From a virus (taxonomy: Duplodnaviria; Caudoviricetes): DNA of 64,000 nucleotides. The stretch lies in the IMG/VR virus record IMGVR_UViG_3300027708_000013; one strand, written 5' to 3'. The first letter of the stretch is position 1. The number at the start of each line of letters is the position of its first letter. Positions 44,007 through 64,000 of the stretch are shown here, in pieces. Both the position numbers and the translations under genes were made by a program. The notes under the pieces are model-generated. The model saw nothing but the letters and a program-made list of their open reading frames with translations, did no database searches and was not told the origin of the DNA.

Positions 44007-46676
44007 TTATTCAAATGTAAACAAACTGTCAAATGTAGTTTTAATGTCAGTGGCTTCAGCAATGCCCCACTCCAGCACACCCAACAAATTTTCCACCTTT
44101 TGATCCACAATGGTCACTTCCATGAGGTCGTTGTCAAATGGCAAGTTTTTAAACCAGTCGGGAATGTGACTTTCATCTGTGGGATAGCCCACCGACGTAT
44201 AGCCCAAAGGATTGTCCTTTAATTTACACACAATGGTTTTCATACCATCCACAATACTCATGGAATAGTTGTCACTCATCATGCGTTTTAAGTTGTTCCA
44301 ATTCATTGCAGCTCTAACATGTCCTGGCATGTTGGCCTTGCCCAAGCGTTTTTCTTCGGCTGTGTATTTGGTTAGATTGTTTACACGTTTGGGTGTACCT
44401 TTTTCCCAGGCCGGACGTTCAGCAAATTCAATCTTGAATTCTCTAACTCTATCCACCACACGTTGTCTAACATCTCCGGTGCCGGTGAGTACTTCCAATA
44501 AAATTTCACTGAGAAACTCCTGCACAATCTTGGGAGTATCACTGCGTTTCAAATCCAAGCCCATGGCCTTGACCTTACCCGGCCGACCCATGACATCCTG
44601 TCGCTTGCCTTCTTTATCATAGATCAACACAGCATAGCGTTTCTTTTTAATGAACAATCCTTTACTTGCTACCAGTTCTCTGCCACCTAGAATAATAGCA
44701 CCCATGTCTCTGGGGCAGTGACAAGCACGTTCCATGAACGCTGGGAAACTTTCATTTACACTTTGGGCAATGGTGTCGTACAGTTGTACGCAGATTTCCC
44801 GCGACCATTCCATTCTACCCGCCGCAACTTCCTCTTTGACTGCGGGCCACGCTGAGAAGTATACCGAGTCGGTGTCGCCGTATATAATCGACGAGCCCAC
44901 ATGGTCGTATTCGCCTGTAATGGCTTCATTAACATGTGCATCCATGTGCCTTGCAATGATGCGGCCAGTGAGTGTCGTGCTCTGACCAATGCGGTGGTCG
45001 AAGAACCTGCAACCCGGGTTGAGGATCGCACCGTAGAGGCTGTTGAGGTTGATTTTTTTGACCAACTGTCGTTTGTCCCAGAACGCAACATCTTCCGGAG
45101 TTTCTGCGGCTTCCTTTTTGGCTTGTAAGTCTTTTCGTTCGGCATACCATCTCTCCAGTAATCCAGGAATAATTCCTTTGGTGTCGTATCTAAATATTGT
45201 ACCATTGGCACTGAGTGTCCATGGTTGTCTGCTGTCAAAGATCATTCGCCATACTTCAGCGGCCGAGTGTACAGTACTTTTGCCCGAGTCCTCCCAGTCA
45301 ATGGTGATTTCTGTGCCGGGTTCGGCATTCATCACAGCAGTGTATTCCACACTACCAAACATGTTTTCCCAAGCATCAGCAAAACTACTGCCTGAGGCTA
45401 TTTTATCCCCAATGTATCTATCTGTCATGATGGGACGCAGTTGAGCCACAACAGTTTCTGGACCCATGTTGAGTGCTCGAATGGCTGAGGGATACAAACT
45501 GTTGATGTCTATGGCACCAATGTATTCGTGTACACCGCGTTTGGGATAGGCCACATAAGCACCTGCGGCTTGACTGTTGACTTCTTCGTCACGTCCTCTA
45601 CGGTTGGGGGCAATCATGCCACGACTGTGTGCTTCGTTGATGATGGCCTGTTCAGTAACAGCCACAGCACCCATTGTGGTGGGCAACAACACTGTGTTGT
45701 CATGTGCCAGTTCATTGGCTAGATCCAAGTAACGTAATTTCTTATCCAGTTTGGCCAACAAGGCCACGTCCTGACGATTGTAGTCTATGAACTTTTCAAA
45801 CTCTCTGTTGTACAGTTGATCCAAGGTGCCTTCGTAGGCAGTTTTATTGCCCACTTCTTCGTATTCGCCAATGGCATCTAAACTGTAACTGTGACGTTCT
45901 TCATAGGTGTATTTTCTATACAACTGCATATAGTCCATATGCACACGACCTATCAAATCAAATGTCAATTGTTCGGCACCAAAGCGTTCAAATGTTCGCT
46001 GTTTGGGAAACTGTCCCCACAAGCACAGGCGTCGTGTGTCGTCTTTGCTCAACACACGATTGATACGCATGGTGGTGTAGGGAATATCATATCCCTCACT
46101 ATTCCACCCGCTCAAGATGTCGGCATCGTCAATGATGTCCAGGAATGTGTTCAACATGTCTGCTTCACGTTCAAACAAGAAACAGTTGTCAAATTTACGG
46201 CAAATTTCTTCTGCCGATTGCCATGAGTAACTCCGGGGTGGCACCACTAGAGTAACCATCCGGTCCATCCAGTCCATGTACACTGATATTGAAGTGATGG
46301 CGTTGAATGGATCATCCGGCTTGGAATAGCCACGCTCGGGATCAAAGTCCACTTCAATATCAAAAAAGGCTGTGTGTAATCTGGGTGAAGCCACGCCGAG
46401 ATAGTTTTCCTCTAGGCAACGAAATATGGGATTGATATCGCTTTCCCACAGTTGCTTGTTGGAGTTTATGCGTAGTTCTTTTTGGAATTCTTTATTGTTA
46501 CGTGTGGTAAAACGGCTCACAGGTGTACCGTAGATGGTTCGATGTTTGCCCTTGGGGTCATCATAATACAGGGTGTAGTTGGCTGGATATTCTCGATAAA
46601 CTCGCTCACCTGCAACTCGTTCTACCACATGAATACGATCTTTATTGCGATCAAACAATGCGTCAATATAGCTGAT
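44007..46676 (-). CDS. Family B DNA polymerase (T4 gp43-like)
   Basis: Exo FFDIEVDF, GWNSEGYD, YNRQD; pol DINSLYPS, KINLNSLYG, YGDTDS, KKRYA. Probable start is ATC 46676 after AAGGAG. Confidence 0.97.
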   Translation of the reverse strand: MSYIDALFDRNKDRIHVVERVAGERVYREYPANYTLYYDDPKGKHRTIYGTPVSRFTTRNNKEFQKELRINSNKQLWESDINPIFRCLEENYLGVASPRLHTAFFDIEVDFDPERGYSKPDDPFNAITSISVYMDWMDRMVTLVVPPRSYSWQSAEEICRKFDNCFLFEREADMLNTFLDIIDDADILSGWNSEGYDIPYTTMRINRVLSKDDTRRLCLWGQFPKQRTFERFGAEQLTFDLIGRVHMDYMQLYRKYTYEERHSYSLDAIGEYEEVGNKTAYEGTLDQLYNREFEKFIDYNRQDVALLAKLDKKLRYLDLANELAHDNTVLLPTTMGAVAVTEQAIINEAHSRGMIAPNRRGRDEEVNSQAAGAYVAYPKRGVHEYIGAIDINSLYPSAIRALNMGPETVVAQLRPIMTDRYIGDKIASGSSFADAWENMFGSVEYTAVMNAEPGTEITIDWEDSGKSTVHSAAEVWRMIFDSRQPWTLSANGTIFRYDTKGIIPGLLERWYAERKDLQAKKEAAETPEDVAFWDKRQLVKKINLNSLYGAILNPGCRFFDHRIGQSTTLTGRIIARHMDAHVNEAITGEYDHVGSSIIYGDTDSVYFSAWPAVKEEVAAGRMEWSREICVQLYDTIAQSVNESFPAFMERACHCPRDMGAIILGGRELVASKGLFIKKKRYAVLIYDKEGKRQDVMGRPGKVKAMGLDLKRSDTPKIVQEFLSEILLEVLTGTGDVRQRVVDRVREFKIEFAERPAWEKGTPKRVNNLTKYTAEEKRLGKANMPGHVRAAMNWNNLKRMMSDNYSMSIVDGMKTIVCKLKDNPLGYTSVGYPTDESHIPDWFKNLPFDNDLMEVTIVDQKVENLLGVLEWGIAEATDIKTTFDSLFTFE

Positions 46677-46683
46677 GATAATT

Positions 46684-46740
46684 CTCCTTGAGTGTGACTT
46701 TGAGCTCACACAGCTCTACATGTTCGTAAGTGAACGACTC
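46684..46740 (-). promoter_or_regulatory. Structured 5' leader of the polymerase gene, candidate translational operator
   Basis: Hairpins GTTC/GAAC and GAGCT/AGCTC, alternative GTGTGA/TCACAC and outer GAGT/ACTC, directly before the SD. Confidence 0.55.
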
Positions 46741-47474: not shown

Positions 47475-48995
47475 CTAGTAGATACTGATGGGATCCACTA
47501 TGACCAACTGTCCGTTGGCACGTCTTCTAATATTTTCAATCTGACCCAAATCCAAATTATAACCTTTGGGTCCAACTAGACCCTCAATGATCGCTTCGGT
47601 GGCATATATTAGGCCATCCAATTCTTGTTCGCTGATGCCGGAGGGTCTTGGTTTATTCATCATGAACGCATTTACCCCCAGCTGACCGCGTGCCATGGCT
47701 GTCATTAAATCCTCAATGTACTCTAGAGTAGCTTCTTCACTGGCCACATACTCCAAATACTCTGTTTCGTACACAAAATAAGTTTCTTCGCCCAGCTGAA
47801 AATCTCCTGAATTGTATATTCGTGGATAATGTGGGTTGCGTTGATTGCGTTGAAAAAACTCCACATAGTCACGCACAGCTTGTTCTCTATCACCATCACC
47901 CACACCCAGCACCTTGACTATGGTGTTTCTTGGACTTTTGAAAACTATTTGATCCCGCCCTTCACCCACGTACTTGTAGCCTTTTGAAAAGAAATAATCC
48001 TGTATTCTTTCGCTCACTTCAAGTTCATCTGCATCGTTGACTTCTTTTACTAATTCTTTTTTCTGTTGTTCCCAGATATTTTTACTTGGTTTATGTTTGT
48101 TCCAAAACCCAGCACCAGCCGCAGTTTGTGAAGGATTACGGCGTATTTTATATCCTTGATTTTTCATATAGTCATACATGGTGGCAGCAATGCCTTGACC
48201 ACGACAGCGATCATCAACTTCTAAATCTTCTGGTGTAAGATATTCGCCATCAAATGAAAACAGCACATGTCCCAGTTCTTGACCGTCGCTTCTAGCAATA
48301 ACATATATGAGTGGTTCATCATCCGGGTCAGCTATATAACCTTCAATATCATCTTGTGTTTCAATTGAAATATCTATGCCGTTGTAGTGTACAGTTTTGG
48401 CCTCTGCAACAGATTCTCTCGCAAATTCTCTGGCTCTGCCTTCTGGATCCACATGCCAAGCATAGAATCTTGTGTCGGGATATTCCTGCTTCAATTCCAT
48501 AAAACTGTTCAAGTTGGGCACAGCATCATCATACATGATGGCCTTGGTGTAACTACCTTGATCTAATAAATCACGTATGATCTTCTTTTTCTTTTCTTCT
48601 GTGGTAGCACCCTGCATGTTGCCGGCACGGTACACATGCACACGACTCATGTCAACACCGTACTTGCGGAACGTGTCTAAAAATAATTCTTTATCATCAA
48701 AGTCAGCTCTGGCCGTCACCATCACAACTCGGTTGCCTGTGGCAATATCGTGCTTGAGTTGATTCATCATGGGAATAATTGGACGCGATTTTTCAAAGAA
48801 TTCTTGTGCGTTTCTAAAGTCCGCAAAGTCAAATTCCTCGCCAGGCTGGAGTCGGTACAGTGTAAAGTCATGACTGTTTAAACTTTTAACTACAGCACCA
48901 TTGCGAATCACATGCACTTGAGTTTGCGTGTGCACCAAGGTGTCGTCTATGTCAAAGACAACTAATTTACTTGGTTGTATTTCATCAGCTCTCAC
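47475..48995 (-). CDS. Modular protein: HAD phosphatase + GNAT + protein-kinase-like domain
   Basis: VFDIDDTL, VTAR, MYDDA; EVDD..RGQGIA; GEGRDQIVF, VKVL, PRIY, EYLE, D...EN...VIVDP. Confidence 0.8.
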   Translation of the reverse strand: MRADEIQPSKLVVFDIDDTLVHTQTQVHVIRNGAVVKSLNSHDFTLYRLQPGEEFDFADFRNAQEFFEKSRPIIPMMNQLKHDIATGNRVVMVTARADFDDKELFLDTFRKYGVDMSRVHVYRAGNMQGATTEEKKKKIIRDLLDQGSYTKAIMYDDAVPNLNSFMELKQEYPDTRFYAWHVDPEGRAREFARESVAEAKTVHYNGIDISIETQDDIEGYIADPDDEPLIYVIARSDGQELGHVLFSFDGEYLTPEDLEVDDRCRGQGIAATMYDYMKNQGYKIRRNPSQTAAGAGFWNKHKPSKNIWEQQKKELVKEVNDADELEVSERIQDYFFSKGYKYVGEGRDQIVFKSPRNTIVKVLGVGDGDREQAVRDYVEFFQRNQRNPHYPRIYNSGDFQLGEETYFVYETEYLEYVASEEATLEYIEDLMTAMARGQLGVNAFMMNKPRPSGISEQELDGLIYATEAIIEGLVGPKGYNLDLGQIENIRRRANGQLVIVDPISIY

Positions 48996-49366
48996 GATTC
49001 AAAAAACTCCGGATGCTGTTCGCCAAAGTCACGCATGAGTACACCGGCTTCAGCATTGGCTTGATTTTCGGCCGCACTGCCTGTGGCTCCATCACCTGGA
49101 TCTAGTTCGTCCTGTTCTCTTTGACGTGCATGCACCAGCTCATGTGCCAGGGTACGTAACACATCAACGGGGTGTCTATCGCCCACAACTAGGTTTATTT
49201 GTTCTGTGTCTAGGTCAAATCCACCAAAGGCAGTGCCAGTGGGTTCACGAAGCAATCGAATTTTGGGAACAGATTTTAATTTTACTTGATCAACAAACCA
49301 AGGCAAGTACTGCCGAACCACTGACACAGTGTCCTGACCTTCAACCAGTATCTCAACAATTTTCAT
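48992..49366 (-). CDS. Zincin-like HExxH protein with CTS-like N-terminus
   Basis: LAHELVH...ENQANA; starts MKIVEILVE. Confidence 0.7.
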   Translation of the reverse strand: MKIVEILVEGQDTVSVVRQYLPWFVDQVKLKSVPKIRLLREPTGTAFGGFDLDTEQINLVVGDRHPVDVLRTLAHELVHARQREQDELDPGDGATGSAAENQANAEAGVLMRDFGEQHPEFFES

Positions 49367-50166: not shown

Positions 50167-50243
50167 ACAGGTGCGTAGGGATTCGTTGGTCTATCATCGT
50201 TGGGGTTTTCCTTTTCAGGATACACAGGATAAGGATAGTTCAT
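50163..50243 (-). CDS. 26-aa Pro/Tyr/Asn-rich microprotein
   Basis: MNYPYPVYPEKENPNDDRPTNPYAPV fills the gap exactly, with TGATG and ATGA overlaps. Confidence 0.7.
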   Translation of the reverse strand: MNYPYPVYPEKENPNDDRPTNPYAPV

Positions 50244-51622
50244 CAGCAGTTCCAACGTCGACGTGCTTTACAAATGGCCTTGTCCGGAGTCTTGGCACAC
50301 GAAATATTATGCATCTTCATTTGTCCTCGGCTTCTTGAACAGTAGCTTTTTCTACGCTTTGACGCTTTACTACCACGCTTTAGCTTTGACGGCTTGGTGG
50401 TTACAGCAGTTTTTAATTTTGAACCTGGATGTTCTCTACGATAGGCATTGACAGCTTTTTGACTCATACCTGAAGTGTGATCCCGTTTATTGACCTTTTG
50501 CCAATCTTCTGTGATGGTTTGCTGTGTAACTGCAAACACATACAGTTCGTCATCTGTTAATGATTCTAGGTCTTCCCATATCACTTCGGCATCTACACTG
50601 TTGTGATCAGCCAATCCTTCAATGATGCTTTCAACTAAATCAAACTCTTCGTCCAATTCATCATCATCTTCAGGACCTTCGGTATTCCGTATGTCATTGG
50701 AAATATCCATCATGCTTGCATCCGACATCCTGGACTGGGTCACAGCCCAATCCAACAGCTCTTGGAATTCTGTTTTGTCGGTCAGGATGGCCGGTTCCAA
50801 GGTTTTCAGCTGAGCTATCAGTTGCGGATAACTAGCCAGGGTCTTGATGGCAGTAGCTCTATCCATTTGCCAAGCCTTGATGGTCATGGCCGCACGATAG
50901 GCTGCACGACCCACTGGATCATCATCCAGCTCGCCGTCGTCCCAGTTGTGATCTTCGGGAGGTGCAAATTCCTTTAAGTTGTCTTCCGATACCCCTTGAT
51001 TTTCGTGATCGTTGATCAAATCATGTGCCTGTTGAACAAAAGGCCGATATCTATCTGTCATCTTGTAAGCAAAGTATTTCACTTTTCCATTGAGAAAAAT
51101 ATCACCTTCGAGTATGCCTCGAGCTGAATTGACCATGCAGTCACCCATTTGCTCGCCATCCTCATCGATCACATCAAAATGGTAGTTATAACTGCGTTTG
51201 CCATGGTTCTCAGCTTGTATCCCAGCCGAAACAAGAACCAATTGTGGCATATAGTCCTCGCCAGAGTCTCTGTTAGGAGAAAATTCGTTGAGTCGGTCTT
51301 CTTCAGTGACACTTTCATTGGGCACACATTTACGAACTTGTCCACCGTTCTTGCCCCGCTTGGTTCCTTCGGCATGATGATTTGGCCAGCAACGGGTAAA
51401 ACCGTTGGCGTCTTTTTGACCTTTGGCAATTTCATTGATGTTGCCGTGTGTTTCACACCGACCGCAGTCCGGGCAAGTCATTTCCATCACTTCATGACTT
51501 TCATTATGCTTGCGTTTACCAGCACAGTGAGCCCGTTGACTAAAACCTTTGGGATGACTGCAATTAATACTGTTTTTGTATTTTTGACTCCACTTTTCTG
51601 TTAGTATTTCATTGATTCTCAT
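50243..51622 (-). CDS. Modular virion-type protein with Cys-containing basic modules (C-terminus DUF6321-like)
   Basis: MRINEILTE start; KWS.KYK.SINCS.PKGFSQRAHC, CW...GTK...KCVPNE and AYRREHPGSKLKTAVT...RRRWNC. Confidence 0.75.
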   Translation of the reverse strand: MRINEILTEKWSQKYKNSINCSHPKGFSQRAHCAGKRKHNESHEVMEMTCPDCGRCETHGNINEIAKGQKDANGFTRCWPNHHAEGTKRGKNGGQVRKCVPNESVTEEDRLNEFSPNRDSGEDYMPQLVLVSAGIQAENHGKRSYNYHFDVIDEDGEQMGDCMVNSARGILEGDIFLNGKVKYFAYKMTDRYRPFVQQAHDLINDHENQGVSEDNLKEFAPPEDHNWDDGELDDDPVGRAAYRAAMTIKAWQMDRATAIKTLASYPQLIAQLKTLEPAILTDKTEFQELLDWAVTQSRMSDASMMDISNDIRNTEGPEDDDELDEEFDLVESIIEGLADHNSVDAEVIWEDLESLTDDELYVFAVTQQTITEDWQKVNKRDHTSGMSQKAVNAYRREHPGSKLKTAVTTKPSKLKRGSKASKRRKSYCSRSRGQMKMHNISCAKTPDKAICKARRRWNC

Positions 51623-52056
51623 TTTAATGTACTCCTTAACATCCATGCGTGTTTTCTAAAGGCATCCATTCTTTCAGCAAGAAAATTGCTGAAGCCGTGT
51701 TCACCTGCGGCTTCAGCTTGGTCGTAAACAATCTTTAATATTTTAAACATTTTATCTGCATCGTTCAATAGTTCCGCCACCATCTTCTCTGCCACCCACA
51801 CTGCACTTTCATCTTCAATGCGGGTCAGCATGGCGAATCTACTGTTTGACCCCGGAGCATAAGCACCCAAACTTCGTATTTTCTCAGCGAATTCATCCAC
51901 AGCACCATACACTTCGGTGTAGATGGTTTCAAATAAACTATGTAGTTCTTGAAAGTGTATACCTTCCACGTTCCAGTGGAAGTAGTGACTTTTCAAATAA
52001 AAAGTATAGTGACTGGCAAAGGCTATCTTTGCTGCTTGTGTTAGTTCATCGTTCAT
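51619..52056 (-). CDS. dps: Dps / ferritin-like DNA protection protein
   Basis: HYFHWNVEG..F..LH.LFE.IY, DEFAEKIR, KHAWML. Confidence 0.93.
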   Translation of the reverse strand: MNDELTQAAKIAFASHYTFYLKSHYFHWNVEGIHFQELHSLFETIYTEVYGAVDEFAEKIRSLGAYAPGSNSRFAMLTRIEDESAVWVAEKMVAELLNDADKMFKILKIVYDQAEAAGEHGFSNFLAERMDAFRKHAWMLRSTLK

Positions 52057-55000
52057 AGTATCTCGTATCCTGCTCGTTTAAGTTGTTGTAGGTAATTTTC
52101 CATGATGTCAAGTTCGTCATCGTCATCTTCTACCGGTATCAGCTGATCAAATGTGGCTGACCATCCGCGACCTTGTTTGTCACCGATCCAGCAACGACCA
52201 CGTTCTTGGTCACAGTGACTCACTGTGAATATCTCATCTGGGCGATCTGCGTACTCTGGTGTGAGTTTGACCTGCATGCCGTTGCGGAATGATTGCGAGC
52301 CTTCCTTCATTAAAGCACTACCACCATGATGCTTTTCGATATCTTGTTCTTTGCTGCTGATAGAATAATCCATAACACCGACAATCTTATCTACTGCCTG
52401 AGCAATTTCGCTTTGAACCCAGTCTGGCAAATCTTCATTGCTACCAATGGCATTGTCTAAATGGGTTATTACTCTTTTCATGGTGTGTAATTGATTTTTA
52501 ACAAAATCGCCCTCGCCTTGACTATGATTGTCAGCATCAACATTTTTTAATTGTGTATCATTGACATTGCCGTTGTATTCCGTTACACCGTGTATGGGGC
52601 TGATGCTGTCCACTGCCACTGGCATGTTGCTATCCTCAGATGCAACTCCAGTCACTGGCTTCAATGTAGCAGCCAACACTTTGAAAAGTTTGCCGGTCCA
52701 ATCTCGGATGACAACCTTTCCGCCCTCAATGCCCTGCACTGTGCAGGGTCGATTTGAAATACCCTCGTGCCGTACCTGTTTGCCCTTGGCTAACCAGCTT
52801 GGAACTGCTGATTCCGCCACACCTTGTTGGTCCAGACCATCTACGCTTTGCCACGCATGAGCAAATGCTTGATTCAGTGCTTGAGTAATTCCTGGATATT
52901 TTGATTCCCAGTTAAACTCGTCCAAACTTTTTTGATTCATAAGAATATTATAGATACCTTTAGCACCAGTATCCGCCACATCAATGATCCAGTCCGATGC
53001 TTGCCAATTCTTTGATAAGTTTTTAGCAACAAAACGAATTTGTTGAACTGCTTCCTTGGCTTCTTGATCGGCTTGTTCTTTTGAATATCCCAATTGAGAA
53101 ACATTTTCTTTTCGAGTGCGAAGAATATTGTTACGCAGTAAGGTAGCAAAACGCTGGGCCATCTGTTCTACTTTTGTTTGAACTTCTGGAGATAAAGTTC
53201 CTCTGCCTTCCGCCACACCCGGCTCGCCTGTGATGGCCTGTAACATGGCACGGGCAACCACACGATCTTTTTCTTTTTCATCTTCTGGCAATTGAGCATA
53301 GTTCTGTGTTACCAGTCGTTGACGCTGTGCCAATTTGGCTTGTAATTTTTCCGGAGCCATTGTTTTGCTATCATCAAATATCATTGGATTTTGTATAAAT
53401 GCCTGTGCAGTGACATTCCACCCTCTATGGATGGCATCACTGATCTTTTCAATGTCAGTCTCACCCGAGTCAATCATCTTTTTAGCATAAGCAGCTGATT
53501 TCAAGTTGGCCTGCCATCCAAATGTGTTACCTGGTGTGCTACGACCATAATGATAAGCCGCGTCTAGGGCCTCATCACTGATGGTGGCCAACTGTTCTAC
53601 ACTCAATGGTTTTCCAGCGGCTTCGGCCAGGCCACTGTGTACACGGGTCTTCAGTTGTTCCAGCACTTCATAGGCGGCTGTTAGATCCTGTTGTGCTTTG
53701 GCACGACCCTGATCGGTTTTCAGTATTTTTGTTTTTTTGTATAATTCACGGATTTGCGACTGCACTTTTTTGATTTCACCCATGGTGGCTGTTTCTGGAT
53801 GTTGAAACAGATCCTTGAACGCCTGTGCCAATGCGACGCCATAGACTGCTAGTCCGGATCCAATCACAACGCCAATGCCGGAGAGGTGATTGAGATTTTC
53901 GGGTTTCAAAGGACTATAGGGATTCATGGGACTAAAGGGACTCATGGGATTCAAAGGATTGGTGCTCCAAGAGCTTTCATTGGTGGTGCTGTGTGTGGAG
54001 CCTTCTGTCACACCCGGCTTTTTAGTCATGTACCGGTCAGCATCTGCGGCTCTGCACTGTGCTGGATCTAAAGGATCAAACTTTGCATTTCCAATTGTAA
54101 AATTCTTGCCGTATTTCTTATAAAGACTATTTGCAAGATTTTCTCTGGCTCGACTGGCTGTTGACAGAGAGGGAAATACTTTCCAGTAGATGTTATCGCC
54201 ACCTTGAGTTTTCCTCCACCAAACCACTTGCGGAGTATTTTCTATTGGGCCATTACGATCAACATAGCCTTCCGCCACAACTTGGAATTTACTTTGTATC
54301 TCTTGTAATGCTTGAGCCAACAGTTCGGTTGGTGCCCGGCTGAGTAATTGTGATATATCGTTATGGAACTGACGGTATAACTGACCCCAAGTTGGGCAAC
54401 TATACGCCATTGCATGAGCACGATTACTACTGCCTTCTTGATCTAGAGAGCGAACGTATTTCCAAAGTTCACGTCTAATCGTGTCACGATCGGTTGGAGC
54501 AACTAATTCTCTACGTGCATCTCTAGACAACGGAGCAGTTTCCTCCACACCCGACCGTTGTTTAACCTGCTGTCGTTGTTTTAATTTTAATTTAGTCTGT
54601 GGATCTAATGCCCATCCTGGCTTGTGCCCGGTTGGTTGACTTGTTGAAGCTTTGTGATTTTTCTCCCAAGCAGATCGCATTAGATCCCCTTCGGCCACAT
54701 CCTTCTTGTTGATGTCATCAGTGCCGTGTTCAACGCCGCCGCCAAACAGTTCATGCCAAACCATTGTAAGCACTGGTGCATAGGCTCTAGAGCCGGGCAC
54801 AGTGTTTAATATTTGGTATATGGGTGCCAACCTATTCCAATAATCGGTATAGTTTTCGCTGTAGTCCAACACCGAATGCCAACTGTCTTCTCCGTCTGCT
54901 GGATTTCCATCCTCATCTTCGTCATTACCGGCAAAGGCTCTAGGTCCTATGCGTTTCCACAGTTGCATCATCTCCTGGTATGCACCTCCATCACTGCCAT

Positions 55001-56252
55001 AGAAATGTCCACCGGGATATCCATTGGGGAACATGTCGGGAAACATGCCAACAATCTTGTCAGCTGATTGGCTTTTTTCTTGATATTGGGGGAATTGACG
55101 AATTATGTCAGCCCACTGTTTGGCTATGGTTTGAAATTTTCCACTGGATACCAGTTTACTCAACATGGTGTCAAATTTCAAATCACCAGTGACTTCACCT
55201 AAATTATCTTTGCCATGTACACGATTCAATGCACGATCAACACCTTTTTTGCGTTGCGGACCTTTTGGTCCAAAGGTTTTCTCTATCTTGCCATACATGT
55301 CGCGTTGTACGCCACCCAGCTTTTCGGCTTGTTTTTTGGTCACATCCAATAGATATTGCTCGGCTTTTTCTATTGAGGTTTCCGTTACATCTCGCACAGC
55401 AACACCGTAGCGACGCAACAGGTTCCTGCCATCACTCACTCTAAATGCACCTTTTACATAAGGTCCCACTCGCTTGATGGCTTTTTGTTCTATATGGGGT
55501 AGATGCATTTCAGCCTGTTCGGGGGTGTTGTATTCACCGTATATCACTGCTGCACCGTCCCAGGCCCATACATAATATAATCCGGGGTCAACTGGGTACT
55601 CTCTACCTTGAATGGTTTCAATTGCTTCCGCCACACCATCTTCTTTCATTTTATCCAGCTCGTGTTGTGGAATTCCTTTTTTTCTGAGATAAAAGTCTCT
55701 AGCTCGTTTACCAACCTCAGGGGTATAATTGAATAGCACACTGGCTGGGGTCAATGGTGGAGGATGTCCATGGGCTTTGATATATGCTTTACGTTCTGCT
55801 TTTTCTTCTGGACTTCTCGCATCATGACGCCCGCTTTCCTCCACACCTTTGCTCATAGTAGGACCTGTTGTAGGTAGTTCTTCAAACTCAGCGTATGCAT
55901 CAAATACATCCTTATAGCCTTGTTGCTGGGCTAGTTTGTCAAAGTAATTATATGATACTCGGTATTTCTGCATTAGTGGTTTTAATGCATCTGTTGGGTC
56001 AATGTCTGGATAGCCCTGTGTTAGTGCAGAAATAACTTCTGGCCAGCTTGGACCACCGGAGCCTTCCTCCACACCCGAGCCAACGGGACTGGCCACATTG
56101 TCTGAATCCTGTGTGGCCGCCACACCGTTCAAGCCAGCTGAGGTGAATAGATCCGTGTCTTCGGCAAACTCGTGTATGATTTCAATTCGAGATTCGCTAA
56201 CCGTGGGTTTGCTTGGTTTTTTGTTGCTGTCAAATAAGTCGTATATGTTCAT
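52053..56252 (-). CDS. 1399-aa polyprotein-like protein; modules separated by GV(A/E)E
   Basis: At least 11 GVxE-type linkers; contains RyR-like and SH3/KOW-like modules and an LPxWVQ helical module. Confidence 0.85.
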   Translation of the reverse strand: MNIYDLFDSNKKPSKPTVSESRIEIIHEFAEDTDLFTSAGLNGVAATQDSDNVASPVGSGVEEGSGGPSWPEVISALTQGYPDIDPTDALKPLMQKYRVSYNYFDKLAQQQGYKDVFDAYAEFEELPTTGPTMSKGVEESGRHDARSPEEKAERKAYIKAHGHPPPLTPASVLFNYTPEVGKRARDFYLRKKGIPQHELDKMKEDGVAEAIETIQGREYPVDPGLYYVWAWDGAAVIYGEYNTPEQAEMHLPHIEQKAIKRVGPYVKGAFRVSDGRNLLRRYGVAVRDVTETSIEKAEQYLLDVTKKQAEKLGGVQRDMYGKIEKTFGPKGPQRKKGVDRALNRVHGKDNLGEVTGDLKFDTMLSKLVSSGKFQTIAKQWADIIRQFPQYQEKSQSADKIVGMFPDMFPNGYPGGHFYGSDGGAYQEMMQLWKRIGPRAFAGNDEDEDGNPADGEDSWHSVLDYSENYTDYWNRLAPIYQILNTVPGSRAYAPVLTMVWHELFGGGVEHGTDDINKKDVAEGDLMRSAWEKNHKASTSQPTGHKPGWALDPQTKLKLKQRQQVKQRSGVEETAPLSRDARRELVAPTDRDTIRRELWKYVRSLDQEGSSNRAHAMAYSCPTWGQLYRQFHNDISQLLSRAPTELLAQALQEIQSKFQVVAEGYVDRNGPIENTPQVVWWRKTQGGDNIYWKVFPSLSTASRARENLANSLYKKYGKNFTIGNAKFDPLDPAQCRAADADRYMTKKPGVTEGSTHSTTNESSWSTNPLNPMSPFSPMNPYSPLKPENLNHLSGIGVVIGSGLAVYGVALAQAFKDLFQHPETATMGEIKKVQSQIRELYKKTKILKTDQGRAKAQQDLTAAYEVLEQLKTRVHSGLAEAAGKPLSVEQLATISDEALDAAYHYGRSTPGNTFGWQANLKSAAYAKKMIDSGETDIEKISDAIHRGWNVTAQAFIQNPMIFDDSKTMAPEKLQAKLAQRQRLVTQNYAQLPEDEKEKDRVVARAMLQAITGEPGVAEGRGTLSPEVQTKVEQMAQRFATLLRNNILRTRKENVSQLGYSKEQADQEAKEAVQQIRFVAKNLSKNWQASDWIIDVADTGAKGIYNILMNQKSLDEFNWESKYPGITQALNQAFAHAWQSVDGLDQQGVAESAVPSWLAKGKQVRHEGISNRPCTVQGIEGGKVVIRDWTGKLFKVLAATLKPVTGVASEDSNMPVAVDSISPIHGVTEYNGNVNDTQLKNVDADNHSQGEGDFVKNQLHTMKRVITHLDNAIGSNEDLPDWVQSEIAQAVDKIVGVMDYSISSKEQDIEKHHGGSALMKEGSQSFRNGMQVKLTPEYADRPDEIFTVSHCDQERGRCWIGDKQGRGWSATFDQLIPVEDDDDELDIMENYLQQLKRAGYEIL

Positions 56253-56941
56253 CGTGTAGTTCCTGCTGAAGGTGGTGTTGTGGCAGAGGGTGCTGGTGTT
56301 GTGCTAGTTCCAGGCTGTGCGGGTTGACCGGCAGTAGCCGAGGCAGTGCCAGCTGTGGGAGTTTGTCCCATGGACTTTTGAGCCTGTTGTACCTGTTTGT
56401 TTTTTTGTAATTCTGTTTGTTGTGTTTTATCCAACAATGCTTTGAACTGACTGGCAGTTTGTGGATTCTGTAACATGTTGCTGGCAGCCACAGCCAATGG
56501 GCCCAGCTGATTTTGTTCTTGATTGCTGAGGTCAGTGCTGGGAGCCTGATCTAATTTATCCATTACCGCAGTGAACTTGGCAGGATTCATCTGCTGAGCA
56601 GCACCCAGCTGATTTAACTTTGGTTTGATTTGATTCACTGATTTTTGTATCTGTGATTGATCTGTTTTCTGTTGAAGGGCCGCTGGATCGGGTTTTTGTG
56701 CAGTGGAGCCCGGGGCGGTTTGAGCGGCAGCTCCATATCCGCCCACGCCACCGTATTCAGTAACGTAGGAGTAATACTCCTGCATTAGCTCACGGGCAGT
56801 TTGTTTCACCTGCGGACGACTTTTTAATTCAGCTTGTAATTCTCGCAGTACACTTTCAGTGACAAGGGTTGATGGTTGATCCAACGGCGTTGCGGTGTCA
56901 GCAATGGTGTCCATACGATGGATTAATGTACGTAGATTCAT
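56249..56941 (-). CDS. Gln/Ala/Thr/Pro-rich hypothetical protein
   Basis: 230 aa; TGATG and ATGA coupling on both sides. Confidence 0.75.
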   Translation of the reverse strand: MNLRTLIHRMDTIADTATPLDQPSTLVTESVLRELQAELKSRPQVKQTARELMQEYYSYVTEYGGVGGYGAAAQTAPGSTAQKPDPAALQQKTDQSQIQKSVNQIKPKLNQLGAAQQMNPAKFTAVMDKLDQAPSTDLSNQEQNQLGPLAVAASNMLQNPQTASQFKALLDKTQQTELQKNKQVQQAQKSMGQTPTAGTASATAGQPAQPGTSTTPAPSATTPPSAGTTR

Positions 56942-59670
56942 CAGCGTTTGATCATACTTTCTTTTTTCACTGACTTCTTACGAAAAGGACTGCTGGGGTT
57001 CTTGTAAGTACCACCAAACAGTGTACCGGTTCCGGGTCCTGAGCCTGGAGTGATTGCTGTGCTGATTGAACTGGAAAAAGTTTCGGCTATACGATCTAGA
57101 TCTTGATCCAGGGTGGGTAATTCTTTTGTTTTCTTAAGAGCTTGTCCGGTTAAGTTGTGTACTTTGCCTTGAGGATTTTTCTTAGGATTGGTTGGTTTCC
57201 ATGGGCCTTCGTCTCGCCAACTGGTGACATTTCCATCTTTATCTTTTGTTTCAGTTCTGTCTTCCGACACACCCGGCTTCTTGACACCCAGGTTGGCTGC
57301 TGGATTGCCGCCACCAAACATGCTGTCAAAAGCATCTTTAGATTGTTGTTTGGTGTCTGCTGTTCGTTGTTTGGCTACTGCTTTTTTACCAGTGATGCCT
57401 TTAAACATCTTGTCAAACTTTGGGTCGCCGGTGGCTTCCGCTACACCCGACTCTGGTAAATTAGGTTTGCGGTGTTGGCCAAGCTGACCTTTAATAGCGG
57501 CTTTAAGATCGCCTGAACGACGGGCTCTCTGCTGATCAGCAAATTCTTTTGTCTCTGGACTTGCACCGGGAGTATTCATTCCAGGAATATTCCCTAGATC
57601 GGTTTGACCTGGTCTAGGAAATTTATGTGCAGTGTTCATACCTGTGCGAGCCCTCAGTCTGTCTGGACTTGTTCCTAATGCTTCCGCCACACCTTCACCA
57701 AATCTATTTGTTGGGGATACATTGCGTGGATCAGAGAAGTCAGCACTAGGCTCAGGCATACTATATTCATGAACTTCGTGAACCCACTCCTCTGGAATAT
57801 CTAACTTACGAGCAATAGTTGCCGCTGGTACACCCTTTACCAGCAAGTCAATGATCTGTTGATCAATTTTACTTTGTGGGCCATTGCCTTCCGCCACACC
57901 CGACTTGCCAGCAGGAACAACTTCAATTTTACTAAATTTACTGTTTTTCATTCGTGCTTTGAATTTTTCTTCAGCGTCTTGCGGATTCAATGCTTTGATT
58001 GTGGCGCTGGAATAGCTTGTTCCAGACTGACCAAAATAGCCCTTGACATCATACACTTGTCCGGGCTGGGCATTGAAATCTGCCTGCATTTTTTTCAAAT
58101 TCATTACACTCTGCTTGCTGATTCCGCCGGGATTGCCGCGACGAGGTTTTTTAAGAGCGGCCTGATACGGAGTATGTATATCTTTTTGTGTATCAAAACC
58201 TTGTTTATCCAGGTAATGCAATACATCGTCGCTGACCTGGGTGTCGAGATCAAATAGTGCGGCAATACCAGCAGTCATTCCTTTGTGTAAAAAAGTTTCT
58301 CCTACTTCTTTGATCATTTCTCCGTCTTCTGCAGAAGCTTCATCATCCCACAATGTGCTGTACTGTTTGCTGAACTCAACAATAGCTGTACCATACTGTA
58401 GCGGGCCATTGTTACCTTCTCCGCCGGGTGCAAATTCGTTTAGTTTACCATTGGCTGACTTTGCATCTTTTTCTAATACACTTGCTGCATGTTGTAAAAA
58501 ATCAATTAAATCATATGCTGTTACAATCTCATAAGGTGTCATGGCACGGCCAAGATCAATGCTCCAGTCGTCCAACTCGTAACGACCTGAGGTTACAATT
58601 TTTGCATAACGCAAGATCCATTGACGTGCTTTTGCAAGATTTGGACTGGCCAAGTCGCGAGTACGATTTAGTACATCATACAACGTATCAATGTGTTGAC
58701 CTGGATCTGCTACTTCTTGATCAATTGCTGAAATTATATCTTCAAGGCCCAGAGACTGTGTATCCGCTTGTTTTTTACTAGTGATGTTGTTGAGCCAGGT
58801 GTCAAATTTTATATCGCCGGTTGCTTCCGCCACACCTTGCTTGCTACTCATTCTTTTCAACAAACTCACAGCATAAACCAAATGCTGGCCAAGTTCTTTT
58901 CGTTGATCTGTTCCTGGTTTAGCATTGCTATTTTTCTGTATACTCTTTGCTAAATTTTCGGCGGCAAGTGCTTGACGGGCCAAATCACCATTGGACCGAT
59001 TGCCAACGATTTGATTTAAAAATCCACGCTTGCGGTTGGCTTGATTTGCACCATCAATTAGTGCCTTAACAATTTTATCTATCTGTTCAGCTGTTGCTCT
59101 ATCACCCACTGTGACAAACTCATCGTGGCGTGTTTCCCAATCCAAGCCTTCCTCCACACCTTGTTCTTCATTCACAGCCCGGTGTTTCACATCCTTCAAG
59201 TGTGCATCAACACCCGCGGTGTTTTTTAATTTCCATTTGGCAGCGGCCTTTCGAGCAGCTTCATAGGAAGTTTTGGCTGTTACTTCGCACTGACCTTTTT
59301 TTGCGTGTACACAAACATAAGCACGTTCTGCATCACTCTCGCCCAACAATTCAGCAAACTTTTCTTCAGCTTCGGCAATGTTGAACACTGTCATGCCACT
59401 GGCATGGGGTCTTTCGCCGCTCATGACATCGTACTCCAACCATTCGACCACAGTTTTTAAATAGTCATTGGCTAGACTGATCTTTTCAGCGGCCCAAGCA
59501 TCCAGTTCGTGCCCGTCGGGTAATTTGCCCAGTAATTGATGTAGTTTGATTGCGTTGGCAGCCGAGTGATAGCACTCTTCTCTCAGCATGTGGTGTTGTT
59601 GGCTCTTATGCATTTGATGTGCGTCATCGCCAATAAATTCGTGTTCTGTGATAAAATCTTGTGGTTTCAT
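56941..59670 (-). CDS. 909-aa polyprotein-like protein; modules separated by GV(A/E/S)E
   Basis: MKPQDFITE start, six GVxE linkers, duplicated ATGDxKFD modules. Confidence 0.85.
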   Translation of the reverse strand: MKPQDFITEHEFIGDDAHQMHKSQQHHMLREECYHSAANAIKLHQLLGKLPDGHELDAWAAEKISLANDYLKTVVEWLEYDVMSGERPHASGMTVFNIAEAEEKFAELLGESDAERAYVCVHAKKGQCEVTAKTSYEAARKAAAKWKLKNTAGVDAHLKDVKHRAVNEEQGVEEGLDWETRHDEFVTVGDRATAEQIDKIVKALIDGANQANRKRGFLNQIVGNRSNGDLARQALAAENLAKSIQKNSNAKPGTDQRKELGQHLVYAVSLLKRMSSKQGVAEATGDIKFDTWLNNITSKKQADTQSLGLEDIISAIDQEVADPGQHIDTLYDVLNRTRDLASPNLAKARQWILRYAKIVTSGRYELDDWSIDLGRAMTPYEIVTAYDLIDFLQHAASVLEKDAKSANGKLNEFAPGGEGNNGPLQYGTAIVEFSKQYSTLWDDEASAEDGEMIKEVGETFLHKGMTAGIAALFDLDTQVSDDVLHYLDKQGFDTQKDIHTPYQAALKKPRRGNPGGISKQSVMNLKKMQADFNAQPGQVYDVKGYFGQSGTSYSSATIKALNPQDAEEKFKARMKNSKFSKIEVVPAGKSGVAEGNGPQSKIDQQIIDLLVKGVPAATIARKLDIPEEWVHEVHEYSMPEPSADFSDPRNVSPTNRFGEGVAEALGTSPDRLRARTGMNTAHKFPRPGQTDLGNIPGMNTPGASPETKEFADQQRARRSGDLKAAIKGQLGQHRKPNLPESGVAEATGDPKFDKMFKGITGKKAVAKQRTADTKQQSKDAFDSMFGGGNPAANLGVKKPGVSEDRTETKDKDGNVTSWRDEGPWKPTNPKKNPQGKVHNLTGQALKKTKELPTLDQDLDRIAETFSSSISTAITPGSGPGTGTLFGGTYKNPSSPFRKKSVKKESMIKR

Positions 59671-59704
59671 GCGTTAAACTCCAGTATATTATAGTATTTA
59701 GCAG

Positions 59705-59983
59705 CTAGATTGTAAACGATAAATCTTGACTGCTGATGCCGGCACCGTTGACAGTAAAATTTTGTGTGCTTATACAACCTTGTGTAACACATTCCTGTAC
59801 TGTTAACTGATGTGTTCCCGGCTCAAGATCTACTTCAATATTTTCTTGAACATAAACACTGTATGCGGGCCAACGCCAAGTGCGTTCAGTGAGTAGATCA
59901 CTGTCAACATAAACTCTATACACCGGAGCACCCTCAGCAGTAGAGTTGCAATGAACATCTACAGAGAGTGCCAATAAGGTCAT
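59705..59983 (-). CDS. Beta-rich hypothetical protein
   Basis: Start MTLLAL at 59983 overlaps the upstream stop. Confidence 0.65.
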   Translation of the reverse strand: MTLLALSVDVHCNSTAEGAPVYRVYVDSDLLTERTWRWPAYSVYVQENIEVDLEPGTHQLTVQECVTQGCISTQNFTVNGAGISSQDLSFTI

Positions 59984-60828
59984 CGATACGTGCCTTGCCA
60001 AAGTTGCTGAATTTTACTCTTTAACTCGGCAATTTTCTTTTGATAGTGGGGTTTGGCAGCAGAATCAATGTTGCTATCGGCAATCAAGTCCTGATAGTGG
60101 TCAATGTCATCGCGATATTTTTTAATCAAGTACACAGTGGCATCCACAGTGGGATTGCTTTCTGCCACACCTTGTTGTACAGTTTCATCTAACACACTGC
60201 TTAATAATTTCAAAGCACGTTGGGGATTTTTTGGGTATAGTGTTTGTGCAATTTTTGCACGACCTGCAGGCGTGGCCTTTGCCCAAGCAGCACGTATTTC
60301 ACTGGCACTGGTGACTCCACCTGCAAATTCCACAGTGGGCAAATAGGCCATGTAGGCATGTTGAGCCAAGGGTAGAAGATTTTTGATATTAGTAAAAGAC
60401 TGCAAATAGTTGCTTACTGGTTGCCCCTTACGTGGCCCACGAGTAACCAAAGGTAATTTACCTGTTGCAGGATCAACTTTTGCTGGTTGTGGTGCTTGGT
60501 TGCGATCTTTTTCGCTACGCACAAATATCAATGCTGTAGCTGTGGGATCATAGTGATCTACAATTTCCTTTGCAGTAAAAGGACTTTTGACCTGTACAAA
60601 GTGGTCTGCTGGAACACCAGCGATGGTGGCCAATTCTTGTTTAACTGCAAAAGGTATCGGACGTTCGCTAGTATCGTTGGTAGAAGCCACATATACATCA
60701 GCTCCAGGAAATGCCCGCAGTGCGGATGTGTAAAGAGACATGTGTCCAGGAGTCCATGGATGAAATCCCCCCGGCATTATCACAAGAGTTTTTAGAGTCG
60801 TTGCTTCAAATAAATCTGCTATGAACAT
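59980..60828 (-). CDS. HIGH-type nucleotidyltransferase (cytidyltransferase-like) with appended GVAE module
   Basis: PGGFHPWTPGH, SASEIR; starts MFIADLFEA. Confidence 0.8.
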   Translation of the reverse strand: MFIADLFEATTLKTLVIMPGGFHPWTPGHMSLYTSALRAFPGADVYVASTNDTSERPIPFAVKQELATIAGVPADHFVQVKSPFTAKEIVDHYDPTATALIFVRSEKDRNQAPQPAKVDPATGKLPLVTRGPRKGQPVSNYLQSFTNIKNLLPLAQHAYMAYLPTVEFAGGVTSASEIRAAWAKATPAGRAKIAQTLYPKNPQRALKLLSSVLDETVQQGVAESNPTVDATVYLIKKYRDDIDHYQDLIADSNIDSAAKPHYQKKIAELKSKIQQLWQGTYR

Positions 60829-60857
60829 GGCAATATCCGTTTATAGCAGTATTTAGT

Positions 60858-62484: not shown

Positions 62485-62513
62485 GTTGGGCTCCTTGAAT
62501 AATATGCTAGTAT

Positions 62514-63230
62514 TTAGCCAGGCGCTGACACCATGGCATGAATATTTGATATTAATGCAGGGTTTATTAGGCCAATAAACGTAACAATCGCTGGATCGTT
62601 GGTGTAAAAGAACACACCCCAAGTGCTTTCATACTGTTTATTCAGCATGTCTTTAGATGTTTTGCTTAGTTTAACTGTGTCGCCTAGATTTTCTAAATAG
62701 TGTAATAATTGTTGTTTAGTTTGAAGTGAATATCTACCATCGCGTACAATTACTTTGTGTGAGTATGCCCATGGTGTTGGTGTTACAATGGCACCGCACT
62801 GTAACAATGGCACCATTTCCGGCTGTGGGTATGTGATAGATTCTATATATTTTGGATCAATCTTCAATGCTATGGTTTTTAATGTGGCTTCATCTTGGGT
62901 ATAAAATTGTATGTTGGGTTCTTCTATACGTGTTCTAACTGAGCCAGACATGCCTGTTTTGATCTCTTGAACTGTACGCAACAGCGTTAAATCTACTAGA
63001 TCCAAGTTGGGAGATCTATAAAACCAACCAGTTTTACCAAAATTATATCCAGATTGAGCCATAGCACGTCTATGTTCCAACGCCGCTTCAAGACTTGCAA
63101 GTTTTGAATCCAACAGTCTACCGCCTTCGGCATGTATTACCAAACGCCAAAGATATCTACCGTGAAATTGCTTCACAGTGGTAGCGAGTTTGATACCCGG
63201 TTGTATTTTATTCCAGAACGATGAGTCCAT
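62514..63230 (-). CDS. Hypothetical protein
   Basis: 238 aa ORF overlapping the clp stop. Confidence 0.7.
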   Translation of the reverse strand: MDSSFWNKIQPGIKLATTVKQFHGRYLWRLVIHAEGGRLLDSKLASLEAALEHRRAMAQSGYNFGKTGWFYRSPNLDLVDLTLLRTVQEIKTGMSGSVRTRIEEPNIQFYTQDEATLKTIALKIDPKYIESITYPQPEMVPLLQCGAIVTPTPWAYSHKVIVRDGRYSLQTKQQLLHYLENLGDTVKLSKTSKDMLNKQYESTWGVFFYTNDPAIVTFIGLINPALISNIHAMVSAPG

Positions 63231-64000
63231 CGGCGTCCACTGTGGCTTGGGTTGGTACTGAGATTGATTCGAATGTCAATGCTTCATCCACACAGTCAAC
63301 AACCACTGTGGTAGATTCAGGAATCTTTTCAAATAGTATTTTTTTACTCAAGGGTACTTTGATTAAATCGTTAATTTTACGTGCCATGGGTCTAGCACCC
63401 ATTTGACTGTCATGTCCTACTCTGGCTAGATAATCTATTGCTGATTCGGTCAGTCTAACACGAATAGATTTTTCGCTGAGTAATTCATTGAGTTCATTGA
63501 TGAACTTGGCTACAATCTTTTTCATACTCAGTGCATCTAGCCGATTAAACTTGCAAACTCCATCCAGTCTGTTGCGAAACTCAGGTTTAAAGAACTCCCG
63601 AACTGCTCGGTCATCTTCATCACTTCGGTTGATGTCGCCAAATCCTATGCTTTTACGTTCATTGTCGGCAGCACCTAGATTGCTGGTTAAAATAACAATA
63701 CAGTTACGTGCATCGGCTTTTTTACCATTACTGCTGGTGACAACACCTTCGTCCATCAAGCTCAGCAACACATTGACAACATCCGGATGTGCCTTTTCAA
63801 TTTCATCAAACAACAACACACTGTTGGAGTTTTTCTCAATATCGGATATTAATAATCCTCCGCCTAGATTGCCATCATCGTAGCCAACATAGCCGGGAGG
63901 AGCACCAATCAGTTTACTTGCGGCATGCTTTTCTTGATACTCGCTCATGTCGTAACGCAACAGTTTCATTCCAAGATTTTCACTCAGTAGTTTTGCCAAC
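63208..64000 (-). CDS. ClpA/ClpB-type AAA+ chaperone, C-terminal NBD2, 5'-truncated
   Basis: DMSEYQEKH, LIGAPPGYVG, LFDEIEKAHPDV, LTSN, PEFRNRLD, MGARP. Confidence 0.95.
   Translation of the reverse strand, partial: LAKLLSENLGMKLLRYDMSEYQEKHAASKLIGAPPGYVGYDDGNLGGGLLISDIEKNSNSVLLFDEIEKAHPDVVNVLLSLMDEGVVTSSNGKKADARNCIVILTSNLGAADNERKSIGFGDINRSDEDDRAVREFFKPEFRNRLDGVCKFNRLDALSMKKIVAKFINELNELLSEKSIRVRLTESAIDYLARVGHDSQMGARPMARKINDLIKVPLSKKILFEKIPESTTVVVDCVDEALTFESISVPTQATVDADGLIVLE

Follow-up and report, generated by a model that had tools for sequence, protein, structure and literature searches.

The polyprotein genes and their linkers

The DNA analyzed in this study (the whole 64,000-nucleotide stretch of IMG/VR record IMGVR_UViG_3300027708_000013, hereafter the window) originates from a large tailed phage of the T4 superfamily, a freshwater jumbo phage of approx. 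341 kb. Its family-B DNA polymerase (44007-46709, minus strand) shows 42-50% identity with those of Atu_ph07, Phosso, 121Q and Rak2-type jumbo phages, near-identical DNA was confined to freshwater and lake metagenomes, and one of its genes, g909, was placed by the protein database on a contig of 340,958 bp. Four minus-strand genes of the window (g282, g909, g1399 and g467) encode polyproteins, in which unrelated modules are joined by a short linker of the type G-V-A/E-E. This linker, conserved both as a peptide and as DNA, is the subject of the present report. The genes, leaders and modules of the array (lengths in amino acids, aa) are as follows:

59980-60828 (minus): g282, composed of a 9-11-aa tag (MFIADLFEA) resembling the T4 capsid targeting sequence (CTS), an HxGH nucleotidyltransferase-like core, a GVAE linker and a 59-aa C-terminal module
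56941-59670 (minus): g909, a polyprotein of 909 aa with an N-terminal leader, at least seven modules and six G-V-x-E linkers
59338-59670 (minus): leader of g909 (aa 1-111, starting MKPQDFITE), in homologues always N-terminal and then followed by a linker
58825-59148 (minus): 108-aa module of g909 (aa 175-282), with linkers on both sides in most homologues
56249-56941 (minus): g230, a low-complexity, Q/P/T/A-rich protein without a linker, located between the two largest polyproteins
52053-56252 (minus): g1399, a polyprotein of ~14 modules with nine G-V-x-E linkers plus GLAE, VVAE, DVAE and DVTE
56160-56252 (minus): N-terminal leader of g1399 (MNIYDLFDS...HEFAE), directly behind which a relative carries an insertion
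52302-52577 (minus): module of g1399 (aa 1226-1317), which recurs in other genes and contexts in loci L002-L006 and is linker-bounded there
51619-52056 (minus): Dps/ferritin-like gene (not a polyprotein), nested in the gene string between g1399 and g467
50243-51646 (minus): g467, with a Cys-rich N-terminal module, acidic middle modules, a C-terminal DUF6321 module and the degenerate linkers SVTE, GVSE and ELDE

The linkers were located by searches for the 12-mer GGTGTGGMGGAA (exact or with mismatches), by translation, and by comparison with other loci, including L001, a syntenic relative with 83-97% identity in aligned DNA:

59149-59160 (minus): exact linker GGTGTGGAGGAA (GVEE); junction in L001 and in an X5 contig
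58825-58836 (minus): exact linker GGTGTGGCGGAA (GVAE); 12-mer search
57889-57900 (minus): exact linker (GVAE); junction in the L001 comparison and in a metagenome contig
57682-57693 (minus): exact linker (GVAE); 12-mer search, L001 alignment
57436-57447 (minus): variant linker GGTGTAGCGGAA (GVAE); mismatch search
57262-57273 (minus): variant linker GGTGTGTCGGAA (GVSE); mismatch search
56064-56075 (minus): exact linker (GVEE); 12-mer search, L001 alignment
55836-55847 (minus): exact linker (GVEE); 12-mer search
55626-55637 (minus): exact linker (GVAE); 12-mer search, L001 alignment
55380-55391 (minus): degenerate linker (DVTE); translation, L001 alignment
54690-54701 (minus): degenerate linker (DVAE); mismatch search
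54540-54551 (minus): exact linker (GVEE); 12-mer search, L001 alignment
54270-54281 (minus): variant linker GTTGTGGCGGAA (VVAE); mismatch search, L001 alignment
54003-54014 (minus): variant linker (GVTE); mismatch search
53622-53633 (minus): degenerate linker (GLAE); translation, L001 alignment
53208-53219 (minus): exact linker (GVAE); 12-mer search, L001 alignment
52812-52823 (minus): exact linker (GVAE); 12-mer search
52578-52589 (minus): variant linker GGTGTAACGGAA (GVTE); mismatch search, L001 alignment, module comparison
60160-60171 (minus): variant linker GGTGTGGCAGAA (GVAE) of g282; mismatch search, L001 alignment
51302-51313 (minus): degenerate linker (SVTE) of g467; translation, L001 alignment, module comparison
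50984-50995 (minus): degenerate linker GGGGTATCGGAA (GVSE) of g467; translation

Linker DNA is conserved and marks the joints of module exchange

The 12-mer GGTGTGGMGGAA is present in 10 exact copies, all on the minus strand between positions 52812 and 59160, compared with an expectation of 0.02 and with none of 100 shuffled sequences reaching 10. Every exact copy lies in frame, as GVAE or GVEE, within g1399 or g909, and one-mismatch and degenerate in-frame linkers extend the series to g282 (GGTGTGGCAGAA) and g467 (GVSE). The total amounts to about 21 linkers in the four genes (16 G-V-x-E plus GLAE, VVAE, DVAE, DVTE and SVTE); the first-pass annotation of this DNA, made from the sequence without database searches, had counted about 19, 10 of them exact, of which the latter figure stands. 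It had also reported no full copy in the first 47 kb, and indeed only matches with two mismatches, at chance level, were found outside the array in the 64-kb window. The peptide GV[AEST]E is absent from the remaining ~65 open reading frames (ORFs) of the window.

In these ~65 ORFs, GCG accounts for 8.3% of the Ala codons, GTG for 35% of the Val codons and GGT for 40% of the Gly codons. With such usage, the exact spelling has a probability of P = 0.009 per GVAE site and P = 0.023 per GVEE site, far below the observed 6/8 and 4/4 sites, respectively, and the spelling of the linker is therefore not a product of codon bias. The Ser and Thr variants are mostly spelled TCG and ACG, i.e. by rare codons one step away from GCG. 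Two proposals of the first-pass annotation, that the synonymous positions are fixed beyond what protein selection explains and that the third codon often keeps its final G when the residue changes, are thus borne out.

The repeat is not peculiar to the window. Homologues of g909 usually have a single module in common with it, and nearly all of them contain several GVAE motifs, often 108 aa apart; two exact 12-mers separated by 300-324 nucleotides (nt) were found in 51 IMG/VR contigs of 34-47% GC and up to 524 kb. These contigs were ascertained by linker DNA, and a cleaner estimate is provided by loci L001-L006 and L065-L068, which were retrieved through protein similarity only. The exact spelling was found at 11/17 GVAE sites in the former group and at 17/29 in the latter (GGT 29/29, GTG 27/29, GCG 23/29), i.e. 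at 28/46 pooled sites against ~1% or less expected, in loci whose codon usage differs (GTG 9-36% of Val, GCG 6-15% of Ala). Codon identity within one module, compared between the window and four loci, was 72% at conserved residues; these sequences are too close for the figure to be used as evidence.

A logo of 158 distinct sites revealed an 18-nt core, CAAGGTGTGGCGGAAGGC (QGVAEG), with conservation dropping off about 6 nt beyond the 12-mer on both sides. The unit originally recognized as a 12-mer is therefore wider across the family, and in the window it is always oriented on the minus strand. Without exception, the 207 exact copies (counted over the window and the loci retrieved by that stage) fall within long ORFs, on the coding strand and in the reading frame that gives GV[AE]E. 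Together with the conserved spelling, this indicates that the element is constrained both as DNA and as a peptide. An exhaustive profile-free search identified 976 clusters (at 50% identity) having a module in common with g909. Among 181 relatives (the 150 best of this search plus those from an earlier search for g909 homologues), 124 contain GV[AE]E, with 296 GVAE motifs in 94,686 residues, approx. 100 times the number expected from composition. The DNA spelling of the linker is thus conserved far beyond codon bias, both here and in numerous metagenomic relatives that differ in codon usage.

Comparison with L001 revealed what happens at these sites. The L001 orthologues are shorter (565 vs 909 aa for g909 and 932 vs 1399 aa for g1399), and consecutive blastn blocks between the window and L001 overlap in L001 by 12-14 nt, which are the linker. 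Within the array, 10 of the 24 block ends are no more than 6 nt from a linker of the strict form G[VLI]xE (4.1% expected; P=1.5e-8), a number that rises to 15 under a broad h-x-E definition (h, hydrophobic residue; P=1.6e-13), and one more block end lies directly behind the g1399 leader, at HEFAE. The modules share 83-97% identity with their L001 counterparts and the flanking genes ~86%, which suggests that single modules have separate histories.

Other sources point to the same joints. An independent metagenome contig joins position 57893 to position 59154, inside both 12-mers (other contig joints with sides shorter than 40 nt were not used), and many metagenome contigs part from the window sequence at linkers. 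In one sample, the depth of the 108-aa module is ~4 times that of its flanks, which implies several contexts for this module in that sample. The g1399 module aa 1226-1317 was found with different neighbors in five other loci (L002-L006), the homology beginning right behind the upstream linker and ending right before the downstream QGVAE; it follows a g467-type Cys-rich module in L005 and L006, and precedes a g467-type DUF6321 module in L006. When the 181 relatives were aligned with g909, 50/140 alignment starts (P=4e-22) and 70/189 alignment ends (P=2e-31) were located within 5 aa of a linker, compared with 7.3% expected in both cases, and a further cluster of ends coincided with the end of the g909 N-terminal leader.

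Gain, loss and replacement of modules, and their transfer between genes and between phages, thus take place with junctions that lie within the linker. The first-pass annotation had named the 12-mer a crossover site and proposed examining whether module indels in relatives break there: they do, and the linker is very probably a recombination joint. Crossover within the repeat is the simplest account, because the overlaps equal the repeat and its synonymous positions are conserved. This part of the picture, taken alone, is a clear and statistically strong case of selection or drive on the synonymous sites of a protein linker.

Putative capsid-targeting tags, candidate cleavage sites and competing explanations

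A prohead protease of the gp21 type (Peptidase_S77) was identified in the close relative G001 and in G002, G004, G005 and G006, and linker-carrying relatives also encode a Gp23-type capsid protein; the protease and capsid genes were examined in relatives, where one such protease is encoded at L012 10263-10898 (minus strand). Such proteases cut behind Glu: T4 gp21 after L/I-X-E, phiKZ gp175 after S/A-X-E and SPN3US gp245 after A-X-E (PMC9026906, PMC10052503). In the decayed linkers of the window, Glu at P1 and V or L at P3 are retained, whereas P4 and P2 are variable, and at a joint that has lost the canonical linker h-x-E still precedes the junction (ALMKE↓G; arrow, junction). Judged by sequence, the V/L-x-E pattern of the decayed linkers fits the L/I-X-E specificity of the T4-type enzyme.

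The N-termini of the array proteins are also suggestive. All four genes begin with M-x(2-3)-[DEQ]-[FLIMY]-[FLIY], which resembles the T4 CTS (a likeness of sequence only), and such N-termini (e.g. MKPQDFITE, MKLREFITEA, MKTTEFLVE) were found in 24/45 array ORFs vs 49/453 other ORFs of the same loci (P=1e-10). For the T4 CTS, the first ten residues are enough to direct packaging, with processing controlled by residues 8 and 10 (PMC9026906). More than 2,500 proteins make up the family of the nucleotidyltransferase-like core of g282, and they either carry the 11-aa prefix MF[IV]A[DE]LFEA or start at the core; since this prefix is present or absent on the same enzyme core, it acts like a removable tag with L-F-E↓A at its end.

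Three other ORFs of the window, at 5492-6190 (plus strand, MRSSEFITS), 48992-49366 (minus strand, MKIVEILVE) and 11675-12088 (minus strand, MGMFDLLNF), have similar N-termini, contain no linkers and give no Pfam match. Going by these N-termini, they may be single-module capsid-targeted proteins.

Motifs resembling late promoters were located upstream of two of the polyprotein genes:

60848-60856 (minus): late-promoter-like motif CTAAATACT, 19 nt before the start of g282
59693-59701 (minus): late-promoter-like motif CTAAATACT, 22 nt before the start of g909

The exact motif occurs six times in the window (also at 62509-62517, 37334-37342 and 30666-30674 on the minus strand, and at 5326-5334 on the plus strand), and three of these copies are placed 19-30 nt ahead of start codons. 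In the structural block of G001, the motif precedes both an ORF for a structural protein and a large ORF next to the tail-fibre genes. It matches CTAAATA, the late-promoter consensus reported for the T4-like phage Aeh1 (PMC1524935); T4's own late promoter, TATAAATA, does not occur in the window. The matching contigs of RNA libraries were identical but patchy and covered early as well as late genes, and they give no guide to transcription or its timing.

These observations can be combined in the following model. Each chain begins with a leader or a short tag resembling the T4 capsid targeting sequence. Behind it come 2 to ~14 small modules, unrelated to one another and connected by a hydrophobic-x-Glu linker, the canonical form of which is Q-G-V-A-E-G, encoded by CAAGGTGTGGCGGAAGGC. 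The 12-18 nt of identity would serve as in-frame microhomology for the recombination machinery of phages infecting the same cell, allowing modules to be exchanged there with every product staying in frame and keeping a functional linker. The chain, expressed late, would be carried into the prohead by its N-terminal tag, where the T4-type (Peptidase_S77) protease would cut after each Glu, and the resulting separate small proteins would be delivered with the DNA.

We regard this model as a whole (cassette polyproteins with a tag or leader and 2 to ~14 modules, whose linker is an exchange joint and a protease site) as rather probable. As to cleavage itself, the balance tips slightly towards a linker that is a prohead-protease site on capsid-targeted chains made late, as the tags, motifs and decayed linkers suggest. 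That one and the same 18-nt element acts both as the in-frame crossover site and as the cut site of the prohead protease is close to an even call, and the broader proposal, that a large clade of freshwater giant phages keeps a combinatorial, horizontally exchanged library of injected small proteins without a dedicated recombinase, falls a little short of that. Of the dual function proposed in the first-pass annotation, the crossover site is thus well supported, and the protease site, packaging and release in the head are consistent with the features of the predicted proteins.

Several observations weigh against this model, and some of them speak for a linker that is only a joint, i.e. a flexible, uncleaved spacer within intact multi-domain proteins of the polyvalent type (packaged or not), whose DNA identity serves exchange. 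Intact polyvalent proteins are known (PMC5512222), and cleavage of the linker is a prediction from sequence. Linkers are also present in homologues without a CTS-like tag: among 119 nucleotidyltransferase homologues, GV[AE]E was found in 9/31 tagged and 15/88 untagged proteins, which is no significant association (P=0.12). In the relative, no GVxE occurs in the capsid, scaffold or portal protein, where only generic LLE, LME and h-x-E motifs are present, and a complex prediction for the protease of the relative and a 61-aa linker-bearing piece of g909 gave a score of 0.00, which speaks neither for nor against cleavage. With respect to exchange, the breakpoints at linkers may partly mirror the survival of viable in-frame recombinants and not the site of crossover, and 12-18 nt is short for efficient homologous recombination. 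Finally, neither the array region (megablast) nor g1399 and g909 (tblastn) gave any match among 50,697 cultured-phage records, which leaves no experimental handle. A mere spacer or DNA site, however, needs neither the Glu at P1 nor the hydrophobic residue two positions before it, both of which are kept in every decayed linker and match the T4-type specificity; nor does it need the h-x-E that precedes the junction where the canonical linker was lost, and CTS-like tags and late-promoter motifs are enriched at the array genes. We regard the uncleaved spacer as unlikely, although it is the strongest of the competing explanations.

The remaining explanations concern the conservation of the DNA. The preservation of 18 specific nt across phages of 34-47% GC is more than identity between partners alone would demand, and the repeat is G/T-rich like Chi sites, as might be expected if it were recognized by a dedicated phage nuclease or recombinase, or acted as a host Chi-like hotspot, instead of serving as passive microhomology. 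Against this stand the confinement of the repeat to coding, in-frame positions (no intergenic or other-frame copy among the 207), its lack of inverted-repeat structure, and the failure to find an integrase or recombinase among the scanned products adjoining the array, and we consider such recognition very unlikely. Still less probable is a role in translation or in the mRNA, where a pause at the rare GCG or at a Shine-Dalgarno-like GGAGG would let the upstream module fold: GCG, TCG and ACG are indeed rare codons in the window and the GVEE version holds GGAGG, but the dominant version (GGCGG) lacks the Shine-Dalgarno core, the common codons GGT, GAA and CAA are equally fixed, and the breaks of module indels inside the repeat would be left unexplained. 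Chance, codon bias, recent tandem duplication or an assembly artefact are refuted by the copy number and per-site probabilities given above, by the unrelated flanks of the linkers, and by the occurrence of the same sequence in contigs of dozens of independent metagenomes and in independent runs.

Should the dual role of the linker prove true, giant phages would diversify their injected proteins by swapping ready-made modules instead of evolving whole genes, with a standard joint that secures both the reading frame and the release site. The ~976 clusters would then represent a large uncharacterized pool of probable early-acting phage proteins, virion cargo could be recognized in metagenomes by a simple sequence rule (a tag, then h-x-E linkers), and the arrays would suggest a natural blueprint for filling T4-type capsids with more than one cargo protein.

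Known systems, module content and neighboring genes

Among the closest counterparts of the array proteins are the T4 internal proteins IPI, IPII and IPIII and Alt (PMC9026906, PMC3012670). They likewise have a short tag at the N-terminus with hydrophobic-x-Glu as its last residues (in the array MKPQDFITE and MFIADLFEA, in relatives MKTTEFLVE), an S77 protease (here encoded by relatives), diverse and fast-evolving non-structural cargo, and a late-type promoter (here a late-promoter-like motif). In contrast to the T4 proteins, which are single and receive one N-terminal cut (Alt also a C-terminal one), up to ~14 modules are chained here by a repeated, DNA-conserved site, with packaging and cleavage predicted. 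The ejection or inner-body proteins of phiKZ, 201phi2-1 and SPN3US (PMC9026906, PMC10052503) are also found in giant phages and are cut after Glu by a gp21-like protease at several motifs per protein. Those cuts, at S/A-X-E or A-X-E, differ in that they remove propeptides from one mature protein, and a cassette architecture, a nucleotide-conserved site or module exchange at such a site are not described there.

Parallels to the shuffling itself are found in the PeSL cassettes and the gp38 mosaics of T4-type phages (PMC2839356, PMC4122927, PMC3157838). PeSLs are likewise short repeats in plastic regions of T4-superfamily genomes, at which indels or replacements between relatives break; they are, however, intergenic promoter-plus-stem-loop-terminator units that move whole genes, and mini-circles have been shown for them, whereas the repeat described here has 12-18 nt, is coding and in frame (207/207) and moves protein modules inside genes. 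In the gp38 adhesin (PMC3157838), short conserved in-frame motifs also separate interchangeable segments of one protein, but these motifs are glycine-rich and build the structural core of one domain, whereas the linkers of the array part independent, unrelated modules and resemble cleavage sites. Polyvalent proteins (Iyer et al. 2017, PMC5512222) resemble the array in having many unrelated domains per polypeptide, in their mosaicism, and in their proposed delivery with DNA and proteolytic release. For these proteins no standard linker, prohead-protease sites or DNA-conserved joint are described (PMC5512222), and their hallmark domains (zincin-like MPTase, ParB/DdrB, ArdC-N, methylase, helicase and others) were not detected in the array by Pfam and PHROG scans.

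The first-pass annotation had likened the array to an integron. Integrons, and cassette exchange in polymorphic toxins at conserved motifs such as CdiA VENN, do share with it a series of interchangeable units that are delimited by a recurring sequence. The array nevertheless differs from an integron in having neither an attC-type structured site nor promoterless whole-gene cassettes, its repeat being a non-palindromic coding 12-18-mer inside ORFs, and from polymorphic toxins in the lack of immunity genes and in exchange that extends beyond the C-terminal domain. A scan of 27 window products, all array neighbors included, revealed neither an integrase nor a recombinase, and no circles were seen, contig data not lending themselves to a search for excised ones. 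An integron-like mechanism is thus not upheld, and the term is an analogy for the architecture of the array only. The same annotation knew of no description of such a system, and our full-text literature searches likewise found no published in-frame, nucleotide-conserved linker bounding exchangeable modules.

The modules are 35-312 aa long. An all-against-all BLAST comparison of the 28 modules of at least 30 aa in the four proteins revealed no mutual similarity except for a shared ATGD-x-KFD start, in agreement with the initial view that the segments encode unrelated mini-domains. Their designation as effectors found no support, as nearly every module lacks a recognizable function in Pfam and PHROG scans (whole proteins and single modules), which gave only DUF6321, a weak helix-turn-helix and a weak CTP_transf_like match. 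Residues 483-556 of g909 weakly match phrog_917, annotated as 'released from the phage upon host infection' (E=9e-5). AlphaFold2 modeling of g909 aa 283-594 from a 3-sequence alignment gave a mean pLDDT of 53.6, and a wide PDB search with this model produced only Z <7 on a small beta-alpha-beta piece, with no fold assignable; in the ESM Atlas, the g909 leader and the 108-aa module matched only unnamed viral clusters and generic helical structures.

A second recurrent motif, L-[NK]-E-F-[AS]-P (57550-57570, 50960-50983 and 51280-51300, minus strand; also in L039, L041 and L047), opens one module type, usually directly after a linker (GVAEG-LNEFAP). The 312-aa 'module' of g909 probably consists of two modules, because its internal copy of this motif comes after a decayed linker. 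At 52296-52310 (minus strand), 15 nt (CAAGGTGTGGCGGAA) following ...ALMKE are missing from the window in comparison with L002-L005; their loss between two GGAA repeats fused two modules without a canonical linker.

In L065 (1-176), the gene upstream of the polyprotein encodes a 1252-aa protein with CTP_transf_like and dCMP deaminase Pfam matches, which suggests that other arrays hold enzyme modules; a GNAT domain is present in P0033/P0055. The linker-less g230 shows 82% identity to its counterpart in the relative and has no family match. The Dps-like gene (Pfam Ferritin, E=1e-20), whose start and stop overlap its neighbors, is conserved in L001 and is unusual among presumed capsid-cargo genes.

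Just upstream of the array (63208-63999, minus strand), a partial ORF with AAA_2 and ClpB_D2-small domains encodes a phage ClpB/ClpX-like AAA+ ATPase. At 47475-48995 (minus strand) lies the gene of a protein of 506 aa, whose N-terminus resembles polynucleotide kinases (phrog_415) and which also has a region weakly similar to GNAT acetyltransferases, and the replication region (12530-13774, minus strand) encodes a 414-aa HNH endonuclease (phrog_1314, E=2e-108).

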